A stretch of DNA of 64,000 nucleotides from Escherichia phage ECO07P1 (OP172784); one strand, 5' to 3'. Positions 419 through 35,476 are shown, counted from the stretch's first letter. The notes: a model not told the origin generated them from the letters alone. Program-made: numbers and translations.

Positions 419-469
419 TCCCTATGTTTAACCTAGGGCATATAGAATTAAAGAATTAAGGATATAGTG

Positions 470-477
470 TATTTATA
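470..477 (-). promoter_or_regulatory. second TATAAATA late-promoter-like motif
   Basis: Minus-strand TATAAATA just downstream of the HNH ORF and its hairpin. Confidence 0.4.
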
Positions 478-478
478 T

Positions 479-496
479 GGCCTGCCGAAACAGGCC
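479..496 (-). terminator. hairpin downstream of HNH ORF (terminator or RNA-stability element)
   Basis: GGCCTG-CCGAAA-CAGGCC inverted repeat; no clear T-run. Confidence 0.35.
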
Positions 497-503
497 TTTA
501 GAA

Positions 504-1121
504 TCATTCTAGTAAATCCCAAAGATCTACGCTATTTCTTTTTGACTTTTCTCGGTTAGATTCCCAAGTGATTATTTCTAAATTATTAATACCGCCAATT
601 ATTTTAGCAGGAATTAAATTATCAAAACCGTATTTGATAGATACCTTATGATCAAGTTGGTAAGCACCTTCTGTACCACACACTCCTATCTTATCAGCAT
701 TTGGCCATTTTGACCAAATTTTCTTATGCTTACGAGTTTCTCTATATACCGATGAAATATATTCACGCATTTCAGATTTATTTGGGTTCCATCTTGGATG
801 ATTTACGCCATGCATACATTCTACGGTTTTTCCTTTATTCGCTGAACCATATGAATTATTATGCATTTTATCTTTATGACGGCAATCACAACAAATATCA
901 GTGTTTCTTCCAATGCGTTGATTATATTCAATTCCACATTTATCGCAACGACATTTTACATACGCAGTACTACCTTTAATGTCTTCAACTTTAACATCAA
1001 TTTCATAATACTTAAATCCGTGTTTAACCGCTCCAAGAGGTGTTAATTTATATCCCTTTGACTGATAATGTTTAAAATTTGATGGTACAATTTTTACTTT
1101 AATGAATTTAGAAATAATCAC
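504..1121 (-). CDS. HNH-family homing endonuclease-like protein with Cys-rich N-terminal region
   Basis: 205 aa ORF; CxxC...CxxC cluster (CRCDKCG, CCDCRH); C-terminal HNH-like signature QLDHKVS...IGGINNLEIITWESNREK; sits between genes 18 and 19. Confidence 0.5.
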   Translation of the reverse strand: MIISKFIKVKIVPSNFKHYQSKGYKLTPLGAVKHGFKYYEIDVKVEDIKGSTAYVKCRCDKCGIEYNQRIGRNTDICCDCRHKDKMHNNSYGSANKGKTVECMHGVNHPRWNPNKSEMREYISSVYRETRKHKKIWSKWPNADKIGVCGTEGAYQLDHKVSIKYGFDNLIPAKIIGGINNLEIITWESNREKSKRNSVDLWDLLE

Positions 1122-1138
1122 TTGATTCCTCGAGAACA

Positions 1139-1152
1139 GGGGCCGAAGCCCC
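1139..1152 (-). terminator. hairpin after gene 18
   Basis: GGGGCTTCGGCCCC (UUCG loop) on minus strand after gene 18 stop. Confidence 0.45.
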
Positions 1153-1159
1153 TTATCAA

Positions 1160-3139
1160 TTAACCTGCAAGACCAGTTAACTCATCGAAATCTGCACCAG
1201 TAGCAGTTGCGACGAAATTCAAAGTAATATAATTTATACTGCGCGCCGGTTGGATGTAGAATGTTGCAACAAACTCATTTCTATCAATTACTGACGGAGT
1301 GTTATTTGTTGTATCGCAAACTACACGATATTCATAAATTCCACCGAGAGCTTTAATTCCCTGCAAGTACTGGGAAGTTTCTGTGCGGAACGATGAACGA
1401 GTAAACGCGTTGTTTAATTCGAACAAACGATATTTTGAACTACGTCCGATATTCGTTTTCAACATATTAAACAGACGACGAACGTTAATACGATCAAATG
1501 GAGAAGGAACAGAAGTAGCTGTTTTATCACCATACAATACGTAACCATCACCACCTGTACCAGTTACTGGGTTGATAGCTTCTTGGTATAAACGGTCGCG
1601 CTGCGCCTGGCGAGTTTCAATAGCAAGTTTAATAACGTTAAGAATCTGGCCACGATTATAACCAGCTGGAGACATCCAAGTCTGAGAAACGTTATCAGTT
1701 CTTGCGCATAAACCAGCAATATCAGCTGCTAATGGAACCCAACGATTCACATCATTATATTTGTCATACTGATACTTGTAGTTACCATCAATTGCTGCAT
1801 AGGTTGAACTGATATTAAAGTTATTATCAGTGTATGAACCTGCTGCAGTTCTCCAATTGACTAAGTTATCAACAGCACGAGTTACAGGAATTCCAACCAC
1901 AGTTTCACGCGGTGGTGAGCACAATACCAAGCAATCTTGGCGAGCATCACCAATTGAAACAACATGTTTTTGGACAGTAGATGCTGTTTCAAGAGATTCA
2001 CCGGCACAAGAACCAGCAATAAACAACTGAACGTCAACAGATTCACGGTCAGCAAAGAAGTCCCAGGCTTCCATCAAATCTCCTGCTGTTACTTCAGCAT
2101 TTGACGATAATCCACCAGACAGAGTTAAAATTCCGGAGAAGCCTTCTGGCCAGTTTTGTGCAGTTGCGAAAATATATTCTGAACCGCCTTTTGCGAAAAA
2201 GTCATCAATATAGATGTTACTATCGTAAATATCTTTTTCACCACGCTTTGTTGAAAGAACAACGCTTTGAACAATAGCATCATTGCGACGAACTATAATA
2301 GCGTATTGTGAATCAGTTTGTGGTCCATATCCAAACACTGCTTTGGCAGTAGATGCGCGTGTTCCGCCACCTGGATAAATTGGTAGTAATGCAGAAGCAC
2401 CTTTTGCGTAGTCAGCTTTAGATACGATTTCAATTTCGATTTTATCGCCCAACTCGCCTGGATAAAGAGCTACTACTCCTGGAATTCCATATTTTTCGAG
2501 ATTTGTTTGAAAGTCAACAGCTGTCATGGCAGCTTCGGCATTTTCAATTTCAGCTAATAAAATACCAGAATCAGTAATAATTTTTCCAAGAGTTATTACT
2601 GCAGCTAAACCAGAGGAAGACGAAGAAATTTCTGCGGTCCAGTTAGAACCTAGTGCTGGATATTCGCCTACTTCTTTCGCTTTAGCGATAATTTTTGCGG
2701 TAGGAATATTAATTTTCTTAATTTTTCCATCAGCATCTACTTCGGTAATTTTACATTCTGTTTCAATGTCTTCTGAAACATACTTAACCGTGATTTTATC
2801 TCCAACCGCGTAGTTACTACCTGGGGTAGAAATAGTGTATTCAATATTACCGGCAATCGGAGATGAGTTTTTAGCGGTATCTCTATCGACAGCACGCACA
2901 ACTCGCAAATCATTTCCGTATTGTAAGAAATTCATTGCAGACATAAAATAGTCAGCAGTTTCAGCTGTAGGTTGACCAAAAGTATTAACTAAATCTACTT
3001 CATTTGTAACCTGTTTAATTTGAAAAGCAGGACCCCACTGGAATTTACCGGCCAGAGCTGCTGTACCAGTAGAGTTATTAACCACGGTGCTTTGAACCGT
3101 AGTTTCTTTGAGCTCAATGCCCGGAGATAATAAAGTCAT
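1160..3139 (-). CDS. 18: contractile tail sheath protein gp18
   Basis: 659 aa, same length as T4 gp18; position between 17 and 19. Confidence 0.92.
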   Translation of the reverse strand: MTLLSPGIELKETTVQSTVVNNSTGTAALAGKFQWGPAFQIKQVTNEVDLVNTFGQPTAETADYFMSAMNFLQYGNDLRVVRAVDRDTAKNSSPIAGNIEYTISTPGSNYAVGDKITVKYVSEDIETECKITEVDADGKIKKINIPTAKIIAKAKEVGEYPALGSNWTAEISSSSSGLAAVITLGKIITDSGILLAEIENAEAAMTAVDFQTNLEKYGIPGVVALYPGELGDKIEIEIVSKADYAKGASALLPIYPGGGTRASTAKAVFGYGPQTDSQYAIIVRRNDAIVQSVVLSTKRGEKDIYDSNIYIDDFFAKGGSEYIFATAQNWPEGFSGILTLSGGLSSNAEVTAGDLMEAWDFFADRESVDVQLFIAGSCAGESLETASTVQKHVVSIGDARQDCLVLCSPPRETVVGIPVTRAVDNLVNWRTAAGSYTDNNFNISSTYAAIDGNYKYQYDKYNDVNRWVPLAADIAGLCARTDNVSQTWMSPAGYNRGQILNVIKLAIETRQAQRDRLYQEAINPVTGTGGDGYVLYGDKTATSVPSPFDRINVRRLFNMLKTNIGRSSKYRLFELNNAFTRSSFRTETSQYLQGIKALGGIYEYRVVCDTTNNTPSVIDRNEFVATFYIQPARSINYITLNFVATATGADFDELTGLAG

Positions 3140-3167
3140 TTTTAATCCTCTTTAATATGCTTTAATA

Positions 3168-6308
<3,141 letters not shown>

Positions 6309-6349
6309 GATTTCTCCTAATCTGGGCTTTAATTAGTTTATAATATTTA

Positions 6350-8051
<1,702 letters not shown>

Positions 8052-8081: not shown

Positions 8082-9545
8082 TTATGCTGGTGATAAAAAG
8101 GTAGAAAGCAATACCCATTCGCCGTCTTTACGAACGTAAGCTTGGCCATCTTTTGGAGCTTCAGGAATATAACCTGCTTCTTGTAGAGCTTGAACATCAC
8201 CTTGCAGAGAAGATATACTGCCTTTGGCTGTATTCACTTCTTGTGTAACTGATGCAATGTTGGTTTCGTTAGCTTTTATTGAATTGGTTAATCCACGTTC
8301 TTCGACAGTTGAACCGTTTGGATTAGTTCCATTTACTAAAGTATTTAACGCTACAACTTGCCCTTTAATTCCTGTGCTGTTATTACCAATCTCTACTTGT
8401 AGGTTTTGAACATCATTATTCAAGCCTGAAACAGAAGTTTCAATTGTAGAAACTCGGTTTAAAAGAGACCCAGGAGGAGAAGGTTGTCCACCGCTAGAAT
8501 CAGTTCCAACAATTTGGTTTAACCATGAAACATTCGCTCTTAAACCGGATGAAGTGTTTTCACCTACAATTCCGTTTAGAGCTTCGATTGAAGTTGTATT
8601 ATCTTTAATTTGTCCTTTAATACTCGAAGGAATATCATCTGAACCGATAGAAGTTTCTATAGCGGTTAAACGCTGTTTAATACCTCCACTTTGATTTAGC
8701 TCTAAATTAATAGATGCAATATTATCAGTGTTTGTATTAACACTCGTGATAATCGAATTATTTCCTGGATATCCTATTGAGGTCTTAATAGCACTAATGT
8801 CAGATTCAAATGTTGTCTGTTTAGTGTCAATTTCATTTAAACGACTATAAACGTTTTGTGAAAATGATGGCGGTTTCGGTCCAAGCTCTTCACGAAGATT
8901 ACCAACTTCAATAGTCAAAGAACCTACATCAGATTCAATAAATTTTGTTTCTAATTCGCTTAAACGTATTCCCTGTGAAGTAATGGCATCAGTATTATTA
9001 ATAATGCGATGCTTCATTCCACTACTAGGATTTCCTACAACAGGAAGACCATTAATATCTTGACCTGCGTATTGTCCAAGTTCACGCTTTATCCACAGTA
9101 AATCATTTCTGATTGTTCTGTATACAGAGTTGGCCTCAGAGTTAAATGGACCAATATCAGCAAGAATACTGTCAACCGTACTATTAGTTCCATTTAATAT
9201 TTCTGTATGTTCACTGGTTAGCGTTTTGAGGTCAGAAATATCCTTTTTATTGATACCTATTTGGGCCAAAGCTTCAATATCACCAGATACATCTAAGATG
9301 CCCTGAATTGTTTTAATATCACTATTTGCGGTTTCTAAAGATGTTTTAAGTATTCCAATATTTTTATCAAGAACTTCAACATTTCTTAGTACAGAAACTG
9401 TAGGTCTATTCATTGAACCTTCGCTTCCATACTGCGTGTCAGCTCCTAATATTTCTTCGCCGTTTTTAATCCAGGAAATGCGGCTCTGGCCCTCTGCAGG
9501 AGAGCCGTCAACGAATGGTAAGTCATTCAGTACAATATCTGTCAT
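8082..9545 (-). CDS. wac: fibritin (whisker antigen control)
   Basis: 487 aa; repetitive coiled-coil body; C-terminal foldon [27 protein letters not shown]. Confidence 0.92.
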
Positions 9546-11125
9546 TCTTTTACCTTAATTATGTAGTTTAAAGAAATGTTCCATGGACGTGTTTCATTTC
9601 CAATTAATTCAGGACGATTTAGTGTATATTTGGAATTTCGTTGTGATGCTGGGTCAATTTCATATCCGTCATTGGTGAAGTATGAATGGTTATCCCAGTC
9701 AAGTCCTTTACGTGTACCAACAAAATTTGATCTACGAGTATTACCGAATGCCCCAGAATCATCAGCCTCACCAAATCCGCCAGCGTGTTTATGATAAGAC
9801 ATCTGCTGTTTTTGTACTTCACCGACATATCCACCGGTACAACCTACACCTAATCTAGGCTTACCAAATTGGTCATTACCATTAACATTTGGATTCGTTA
9901 AGTGAGAGCCACGACCAGAGCCACGAACAAAAAGACCACGCATGTCAGGCAATCCAGGATTTGATGAGCTTCCGCCATATCTTGTTCCAATTCTAGAAGC
10001 ATATAATGGGCAATCTGACGCAGAAACAGTTCCACCATGACAGAAGCGCCAAGCATCACTAGGAAGACTATCTGCCGCCCACATCATAATAGCTCCGACA
10101 GGAATAGTTCTATCTATTTCATTCTGCGTTACAACACGCTTACCTTGAATATAACCACCGGTCATGTTAACTGTTCCGGTAATATTTGCTCCGCCTGAAG
10201 CTATTGTAAGCGTATTATTAATACGAAGTGTTCCATTAATCGTTTGACCACCTCTTTGGTGGATAACGTCAGCATTCCAAGCTAGTGCTGATGAAGCATC
10301 ACCTCCGCTCTGTGAACCGGCGGTTGTAGTTAATTTAACCACGCCTCTCATTGACGTTGTAGAACCACGACCATTAAGAGTTGCGCCAGTAACCGCAACA
10401 GAAGCATTATTTGAGTTAACTTCTGATTGTGTTCCTAATTTAATTACGCCTTTATATTCTTCAGTAGCAGTAGAATTCATTAGCGTATAAGGAGAAATTG
10501 CATAGCCTTCTCTTAAGGTTCCTTGACGAACTTGAGCTACTGTCGCTAATTGAACAACGCCTTGGTCCGATTCGGTAGCTGTGGTTTCAGAAGGAGCGAT
10601 TTGCGCAATTAGTTTAATAGCTAACTGCTGCGTTTTTAATGGAGTCATTGCAGTAGTATCATCTGCGCCAGCTAATGCTTGCGGTAGAGATGAAATTTTA
10701 ATAACACCATTCGAGGATTCAGTTGAAACACGAGTTTCAAACGCATTATTAAGAGCAACAGTAAATTTAGCTGGAGTTATAGAAGATTCGTTATTAACTC
10801 CGGCAATGGCTTCATCATTGGTTGAATATCTTGTTAATCCGTAAACAGTTTCAGTTGCATTTGGATAAGATAATCTTGTTGCCAACGTTGCTGGTGTAAC
10901 TGCTTTGGTATTATTAGTTCCATCTATAACTTCCTGTTCAGTGGCAAGAAATAAAATTCCCTTTGTTGTTGACGATGCATCAGGAACTCCATTTACGCCA
11001 GCAGGAGAAATGGCTGCTATAGCAGCCTGAACATCAGTAATCTCTGGTGGAAAATTCGTATCGGTAGGATCAAATTTTACATAACGAGATTCATTAGAAA
11101 CGTGTTGATATGTATTATTACTCAT
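9542..11125 (-). CDS. 12: short tail fiber protein gp12
   Basis: 527 aa matches T4 gp12; Gly/Thr/Ser-rich fibrous composition; synteny. Confidence 0.88.
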
Positions 11126-23739: not shown

Positions 23740-23747
23740 TATAAATA
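23740..23747 (+). promoter_or_regulatory. T4 late promoter motif TATAAATA (gene 4)
   Basis: Plus-strand TATAAATA 26 nt upstream of gene 4 ATG. Confidence 0.55.
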
Positions 23748-23754
23748 TATTATC

Positions 23755-23762
23755 TATTTATA
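23755..23762 (-). promoter_or_regulatory. T4 late promoter motif TATAAATA (gene 53), divergent
   Basis: Minus-strand TATAAATA about 29 nt upstream of gene 53 start. Confidence 0.5.

Positions 23763-34673: not shown

Positions 34674-35476
<803 letters not shown>

Follow-up and report, generated by a model that had tools for sequence, protein, structure and literature searches.

In T4, the genes for the tail sheath and the tail tube are neighbors, and in the T4-like Escherichia phage ECO07P1 another gene stands between them. What is this gene, and is it an old resident of the junction or an invader? We analyzed a stretch of 64,000 nucleotides (OP172784; hereafter the window) of this T4-like (Tequatrovirus) genome, which is presented in the orientation opposite to the late genes. 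Over its first 3.2 kb, the window shares 97.8% identity with Escherichia phage W143 and 96% with RB3. Along the minus strand, gene 17 (large terminase, 3171-5003) is followed by gene 18 (tail sheath, 1160-3139), an ORF of 205 amino acids (504-1121, with a TGA stop codon at 504-506) and the 5' part of gene 19 (tail tube, 1-396, ATG at 394-396), which runs off the start of the window. The translation of gene 19 begins with MFVDDVTRAFESGDF, identical to T4 gp19 in 11/11 aligned genomes, and the gene is annotated as gene 19 in T4. A sequence-only reading of this DNA had proposed that the ORF, with its Cys-rich first half and a C-terminal D-H...N...N pattern, is a free-standing HNH-type homing-endonuclease-like insertion between genes 18 and 19. 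Its coordinates, length and residue pattern were all correct, and the proposed identity finds support in empty sites, invariant residues, the predicted fold and relatives that split other genes.

The ORF belongs to PHROG 5104 and is the type A allele of T6 "ORF 19.1". It begins with a GTG start codon (1119-1121, minus strand) behind a GAGGAA Shine-Dalgarno sequence (1126-1131), with a spacing of 4 nt, as read from the sequence; the alignment showed that this 5' end is common to type A and type B alleles. Judged by its conservation, the ORF is a real, functional gene under purifying selection, because it has homologues up to E = 1e-132 and a dN/dS of 0.09-0.12 among type A copies. A few broken copies of the family were found elsewhere than in the type A set, as expected for a late stage in the life cycle of a homing-type element.

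We aligned the junction in 11 Tequatrovirus genomes, three with a type A allele (the window, RB3 and pSs-1), three with a type B allele (T6, ECML-134 and G2133) and five with an empty junction (T4, RB18, RB14, RB51 and wV7). As the sequence-only reading stated, T4 has no gene at this position: a spacer of 116 bp is all that separates genes 18 and 19 in T4, and GCACCGTA stands where the window has 655 bp. The inserted segment (505-1159) is absent from T4, and these 8 bases take its place in the empty genomes. Both of its boundaries, TAGAAT/CATTCTAG on the left and GGGGCCGAAGCCCC-TTATCAA/TTAACC on the right (slashes mark the boundary), were the same in type A and type B carriers and identical in all six of the aligned carriers. 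The inserted element, made up of a hairpin, a ribosome-binding site and the ORF, lies after the stop codon of gene 18 and before the native hairpin of the spacer, so that gene 18 still has a hairpin at its 3' end and neither late promoter of gene 19 is lost. At the left junction, spacer and ORF end together form a perfect 6-bp inverted repeat, TAGAAT-C-ATTCTA (499-511), which may be due to chance.

The two late-promoter boxes with the sequence TATAAATA (411-418, nearer gene 19, and 470-477, both on the minus strand) are native to the spacer. They are identical in 11/11 aligned genomes, including T4 and every other empty-site genome, and two records carry promoter annotations at this place. The native hairpin GGCCUGU-UUCG-GCAGGCC (479-496, minus strand; -12.8 kcal/mol, z -3.4) is present in T4 as well, where it lies 3' of gene 18, and lies 3' of the inserted ORF in the window. 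Because the T4 spacer already holds both boxes and the hairpin, the insertion did not create them; of the suggestion that it had duplicated or preserved the gene 19 promoter, preservation stands and duplication does not. Similarly, the two boxes are found at the positions proposed, but they do not flank the ORF, as both lie between it and gene 19. The ORF is instead flanked by two UUCG-loop hairpins, the native one and that of the insert, AGGGGC-UUCG-GCCCCU, which follows directly after the gene 18 stop codon (1138-1153, minus strand; -14.7 kcal/mol, z -3.9). Over the whole window we found 15 copies of TATAAATA against 9.75 expected, and 7 of 100 shuffles reached 15, which means no enrichment. 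Other close pairs of perfect boxes occur at 23740-23762 and 34676-34696, one divergent and one tandem.

We detected no perfect late promoter belonging to the ORF directly upstream of it, the hairpin at 1138-1153 is not followed by a T-run, and a search of 300-1700 revealed no terminator-like site. Because of the missing upstream promoter and the lack of a T-run after the insert's hairpin, we infer that late read-through from the promoter of gene 18 is the most likely mode of ORF expression; the box of this promoter (3168-3175, minus strand) is the nearest perfect late promoter able to drive the ORF in this way. The sole closer candidate is a one-mismatch box, TATAAATT, at 1231-1238, which is also present in RB14, RB51 and wV7, genomes without the ORF.

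Universal presence of the ORF at this position in T4-like genomes, with a non-nuclease function, would have told against the sequence-only reading, but about three quarters of the close relatives are empty. Among records sampled at even spacing from those that match the T4 junction, the site was occupied in 11/45 Tequatrovirus-level records, and we counted ~47 type A and ~70 type B carriers in ~501 records, an occupancy of ~23-24% in Tequatrovirus. In a more distant band (~77% identity to the T4 junction, e.g. APCEc01 and p000v) all 14 sampled records were empty. Judged by these comparisons, the ORF is an optional intergenic gene with fixed boundaries, as are the free-standing homing endonuclease genes of T4-like phages.

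Homologues at the same position were also found in VR7 ("gp19.1, similar to T6 gp19.1"), Bp7 and T4-like phages of Klebsiella, Acinetobacter and Aeromonas, and Sinorhizobium phage phiM7 has a homologue likewise 3' of its tail sheath gene. This common post-sheath position, from Tequatrovirus to phiM7, is a point in favor of an alternative in which the ORF is an old, vertically inherited accessory gene that is useful to the phage and was lost repeatedly, including in T4, without homing. A-lineage homologues in other genera that are 60-66% identical, and a dN/dS of ~0.1, are further points for such a resident, purifying selection being compatible with a function that benefits the phage. Each loss, however, would have had to leave exactly the same 8-bp empty site.

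The junction also holds another type of gene in another phage. In Dickeya phage LIMEstone1, the gp18/gp19 junction is filled by a "Hef-like" endonuclease gene (8129-9919) that is Vsr-like, unrelated to the ORF, 596 aa long and encoded on the opposite strand, which makes the 18-19 junction a recurrent landing site for different endonuclease families.

The window and T6 share the family, the site, the boundaries, the 5' leader and the last ~70 codons of the gene, but they carry different alleles, and the type A and type B proteins are only 49% identical. The divergence is unevenly distributed along the DNA. Type A and type B are essentially 100% identical in window positions 480-570 (the last ~22 codons and downstream sequence), 73-97% identical in 570-719 (C-terminal part of the ORF), ~40-50% identical in 719-1099 (central block, codons ~8-134) and ~85% identical in 1099-1160 (leader and first 7 codons). 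As read from this alignment, a central block has been exchanged between otherwise common ends, and the block covers the predicted DNA-binding half and the first helix of the C-terminal domain.

Polymorphism in the flanks is local too. Variation is almost absent from the spacer and the beginning of gene 19 (350-504). On the other side, a hypervariable patch of 43 bp (1205-1247, minus strand) falls within the final 30 codons of gene 18, at a distance of 45-90 bp from the insert. No other 40-bp window in the 1.8 kb of flanks is as diverse: pi reaches 0.19 in the patch, compared with a mean of 0.041. The differences in the patch are almost all synonymous, with a single amino-acid change (T/Q), and close relatives have at least four haplotypes. 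In the 11 genomes, which are a phylogenetically non-independent sample, these haplotypes follow the ORF type. The T4-type patch was found in 248 records, and at least three ORF carriers (sb1, sb3 and Ec_YwIITB1) have it. The association between patch and ORF allele, as seen in these sequences, is strong but not absolute. Because at least three carriers have the T4-type patch, it cannot be a simple self-immunity site, and the same carriers weaken the idea that it is a strict immunity or target determinant. We consider the patch a candidate for a co-conversion tract, an endonuclease target or an imported patch. Beyond ~100 bp, the flanking polymorphisms of the 11 genomes do not sort by ORF type, which indicates that the ORF sits in different genetic backgrounds. 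This linkage pattern fits short co-conversion tracts and an ORF that would move between backgrounds.

Relatives of the C-terminal domain are numerous and occur in other contexts. Profile searches with this domain recovered 2779 cluster representatives at E<=1e-10, and elsewhere the domain is fused to NUMOD3, to helix-turn-helix domains and to DUF7487. In the type B allele and in a protein of Acinetobacter phage 133, the N-terminal part matches PHROGs annotated as "homing endonuclease", which include Hef-like proteins as well. In phage 133 (locus 3070-5147), rnlA is split by this 273-aa protein, which has the same C-terminal domain; rnlA-A and rnlA-B correspond to positions 1-32 and 48-223 in the RNA ligase model, and the ends of the ORF overlap both pieces. 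In Klebsiella phage KP13-7, a relative of the domain is flanked by nrdA pieces corresponding to positions 205-393 and 391-523 of the barrel. At this locus (683-3865), nrdA is interrupted by an intein-splicing remnant, a GIY-YIG ORF and the ORF with the HNH-like domain, all in a row. Searches at the Rfam gathering thresholds found no group I introns at the rnlA site of phage 133 or the nrdA site of KP13-7. DUF7487 (KYGV-type repeats) was observed upstream of either a Vsr-like or an HNH-like domain, in three proteins and in F-LimVII/VIII of LIMEstone1, and the domain arrangements suggest that it is a common DNA-binding module of phage homing endonucleases.

These comparisons indicate that the putative nuclease domain is carried on interchangeable DNA-binding modules and that its relatives invade conserved genes, as homing endonucleases of T4-like phages do. 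Together with the uniform empty site, three observations speak against the old resident described above: two alleles with only 49% identity occupy one site in one genus, the flanks are mosaic, and the same domain splits rnlA and nrdA and is fused to DNA-binding modules of homing endonucleases. We therefore consider vertical inheritance with repeated loss unlikely and favor a free-standing homing endonuclease gene.

The second part of the question is whether the protein has the domain expected of such an enzyme. In the predicted DNA-binding half, a zinc-finger-like CxxC...CxxC segment (codons 57-80; 882-953, minus strand) contains six Cys residues, three of which (C59, C62 and C77) are invariant in 32 homologues, and the Cys region of several members weakly matches DUF4379 treble-clef and zinc-ribbon families. 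The C-terminal half contains a predicted strand-strand-helix nuclease core (codons 154-192; 546-662, minus strand) with D157-H158, N180, N189 and K192. In 32 full-length sequences and 20 distant sequences of the C-terminal domain, with relatives down to 25-38% identity, residues D157, H158, S161, N180, L181, N189 and K192 are invariant. Among 76 sequences, the D and H never vary, and conservation of the N residues is 90% or more. The family alignment also contains a GxNHPRWNP motif. An alignment without the HNH catalytic residues would have told against the sequence-only reading; what we found was an invariant D-H...N...N.

AlphaFold produced a confident model, with a pLDDT of 85.6 overall and 93.0 over residues 103-205. 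In this model, H158 is at the end of a strand, N180 comes before the next one, and N189 is part of the helix that follows. The predicted domain thus has the strand-strand-helix topology of the HNH / His-Me finger superfamily, with the His at the end of strand 1, one Asn before strand 2 and one at the helix, residues to which we assign presumed catalytic roles. The best structural matches of the C-terminal domain were the HNH endonucleases Gme HNH (4h9d) and GVE2 HNH (5h0o); a Foldseek search against the PDB gave no match. Residues ~169-190 of the domain (window 552-617), with the pattern IPxEIIGxIxNLxIIxWxxN, mimic a leucine-rich repeat (LRR). This segment gives spurious LRR matches in PDB profile searches, and some of 7389 weak profile matches may be of the same kind.

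Sequence models were far less informative. The ORF had no match in Pfam at E<=1, no family in an NCBIfam scan and no match in PADLOC, and PHROG 5104 is annotated as "unknown function". Curated HNH models (Pfam PF01844, HNH_2 to HNH_5 and Endonuclease_7) gave no significant match, HNH_4 matching 1 of 32 members with an E of 0.078, and a precomputed HNH domain was present on none of ~120 database homologues, including those consisting of the C-terminal domain only. Sequence searches of the PDB with the protein and two profiles returned only zinc-finger proteins, mS66, spurious LRR matches and Cas8f-HNH at E 1.3. In hhalign, HK97 gp74 aligned in the correct register but without significance, both by itself and as a family; with the family, DH fell on DH and NL on NW, at a P of 0.018-0.026 and a probability of 2-3%. 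One relative weakly matches the PHROG "endonuclease VII" (E 2.6e-4), and JGI names two family members McrA. The positive controls MobE and HK97 gp74 barely pass Pfam HNH themselves, with 21.5 and 25.6 bits against a cut-off of 21.4; failure to match Pfam HNH is therefore not strong negative evidence. The HNH-like C-terminal signature noticed in the sequence is thus backed by residue conservation and by the best fold match to HNH endonucleases, with no sequence model reaching significance, and from motif and predicted structure together we regard the HNH-type assignment as probable.

A more sceptical view would make the ORF product a zinc-finger DNA- or RNA-binding protein, in which the HNH-like motif is a structural relic without nuclease activity. 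The lack of a significant HNH sequence model is compatible with this, and so are an Asn instead of a His at the last position of the motif and the absence from the C-terminal domain of the Cys pairs of classical HNH domains. But HNN variants of the HNH superfamily are active, the profile recovers thousands of cluster representatives, and a relic is not expected to keep D-H, N and N down to 25-38% identity and nearly so in 76 sequences. We consider a relic improbable and retain the assignment to a putative HNH-type nuclease domain as the preferred one.

The best structural matches could also point to a different job for an active nuclease. Both 4h9d and 5h0o are small stand-alone HNH endonucleases, which we take to belong to the terminase-associated class of gp74, and the large terminase gene 17 is only one gene away from the ORF, so that the protein might be an accessory nuclease like HK97 gp74 that helps packaging and not homing. 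However, T4 and most relatives package their DNA without the ORF, no significant sequence relation to the gp74 family was found, and the ORF has an extra N-terminal half that looks sequence-specific, which makes a role in packaging most improbable. A Hef-type (EDxHD, Vsr-like) homing endonuclease, for which the Hef-like F-LimVIII at gp18/gp19 of LIMEstone1 (PMC3296691), weak DUF4379 zinc-finger matches in some members and N-terminal modules common to Hef-like proteins could be cited, can be dismissed, as the LIMEstone1 gene has DUF559/Vsr domains and no similarity to the ORF, in which we found no Vsr-like PD-(D/E)xK domain (DUF559/MTES_1575/Vsr).

Hef proteins, which form a further non-classical family of homing endonucleases in T4 relatives, nevertheless share part of their architecture with the ORF family. 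Hef-type enzymes are Vsr-like (PMC3239194), and Hef and F-LimVIII of LIMEstone1, found at the same gp18/gp19 junction as the ORF, have N-terminal modules in common with the family, namely DUF7487 and zinc-finger regions matching phrog_12131 and phrog_3339. The nucleases themselves are unrelated, Vsr-like/DUF559 in Hef and HNH-like in the ORF.

Taken together, we consider it plausible, with a probability of roughly 0.7, that the ORF encodes a free-standing homing endonuclease whose nuclease domain is a divergent one of the HNH type, with activity and homing that we infer. In such an enzyme, residues 1-100, a beta-rich region with a Cys4 zinc finger, would bind a specific DNA sequence, and residues ~103-205 would cut or nick the DNA in a metal-dependent reaction, with H158 as the putative general base and N180/N189 as structural and metal-binding Asn residues. 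In a mixed infection with a relative that has an empty junction, the enzyme would break the DNA of the relative near the 18-19 junction, and recombinational repair would then copy the ORF, along with adjacent gene 18 sequence, into the broken genome. The phage that hosts the element would be unharmed, as a 3' hairpin of gene 18 and both late promoters of gene 19 are retained.

Selfish mobile genes of this sort are common in T4-like phages, and comparable genes exist at other T-even loci. T4 MobA-MobE and RB3 I-TevIII are, like the ORF, optional intergenic genes between conserved T-even genes and have an HNH-type motif. The outcome of Mob-type activity is a nick or break in the allele that lacks the ORF, followed by gene conversion with flanking markers (PMC2988022), and by analogy the consequence of the ORF is likely to be the same. 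The domain order differs: Mob proteins have the HNH domain first (PMC2988022), whereas in the ORF the predicted nuclease domain is C-terminal and the predicted DNA-binding half N-terminal. MobE barely matches Pfam HNH, and the ORF does not. We also ran the comparison with the Mob family that the sequence-only reading had put forward, and no link emerged, as hhalign of the family profile against T4 MobE gave a probability of 0.1%. With this value and the C-terminal position of the HNH-like motif, membership in the Mob family is rejected.

We also considered a wider and more tentative interpretation. The C-terminal domain might represent a very large HNH-like family without a curated model, an interchangeable nuclease module that is swapped with the Vsr-like domain of Hef on common DNA-binding modules. 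The alleles at the 18-19 junction could then be rival endonucleases that differ in target specificity and displace each other at one site, since they have an identical nuclease core and identical ends with a swapped DNA-binding block. If true, which we regard as possible but doubtful, the two alleles would provide a natural example of specificity being reprogrammed by the exchange of a sequence block.

The ORF is already visible in many GenBank records, mostly as "hypothetical", and a few records name it "homing endonuclease", "HNH endonuclease" or "type II restriction endonuclease". In the literature we found no characterization of "19.1" or of an endonuclease between genes 18 and 19. The ORF is best described as an uncharacterized, putative free-standing HNH-type homing endonuclease of T-even phages, with an unusually divergent nuclease domain. 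Free-standing homing endonucleases influence which genes survive co-infection by T4-like phages and mark recombination boundaries, and this family is present in about a quarter of Tequatrovirus genomes, T6 and RB3 among them, and in many therapeutic isolates. If active, the enzyme would constitute a homing system beside two essential tail genes, would explain the local mosaicism in gene 18 and would give a basis for naming thousands of metagenomic proteins without a domain model; general concepts are unchanged by the finding.

Two further observations were made in the course of the comparisons. Record MG010123 ("Staphylococcus phage SAJK-IND", 32 kb) is probably mislabeled or contaminated, because it is 97.8% identical to the T4-like 17-19 region of the window. 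In Bp7 (5269-5850 and 5908-7481), genes 19 and 20 are separated by a second optional endonuclease gene, which carries the annotation "HNH endonuclease" but by Pfam resembles SegE with GIY-YIG and NUMOD3; gene 20 beside it is annotated in two pieces.
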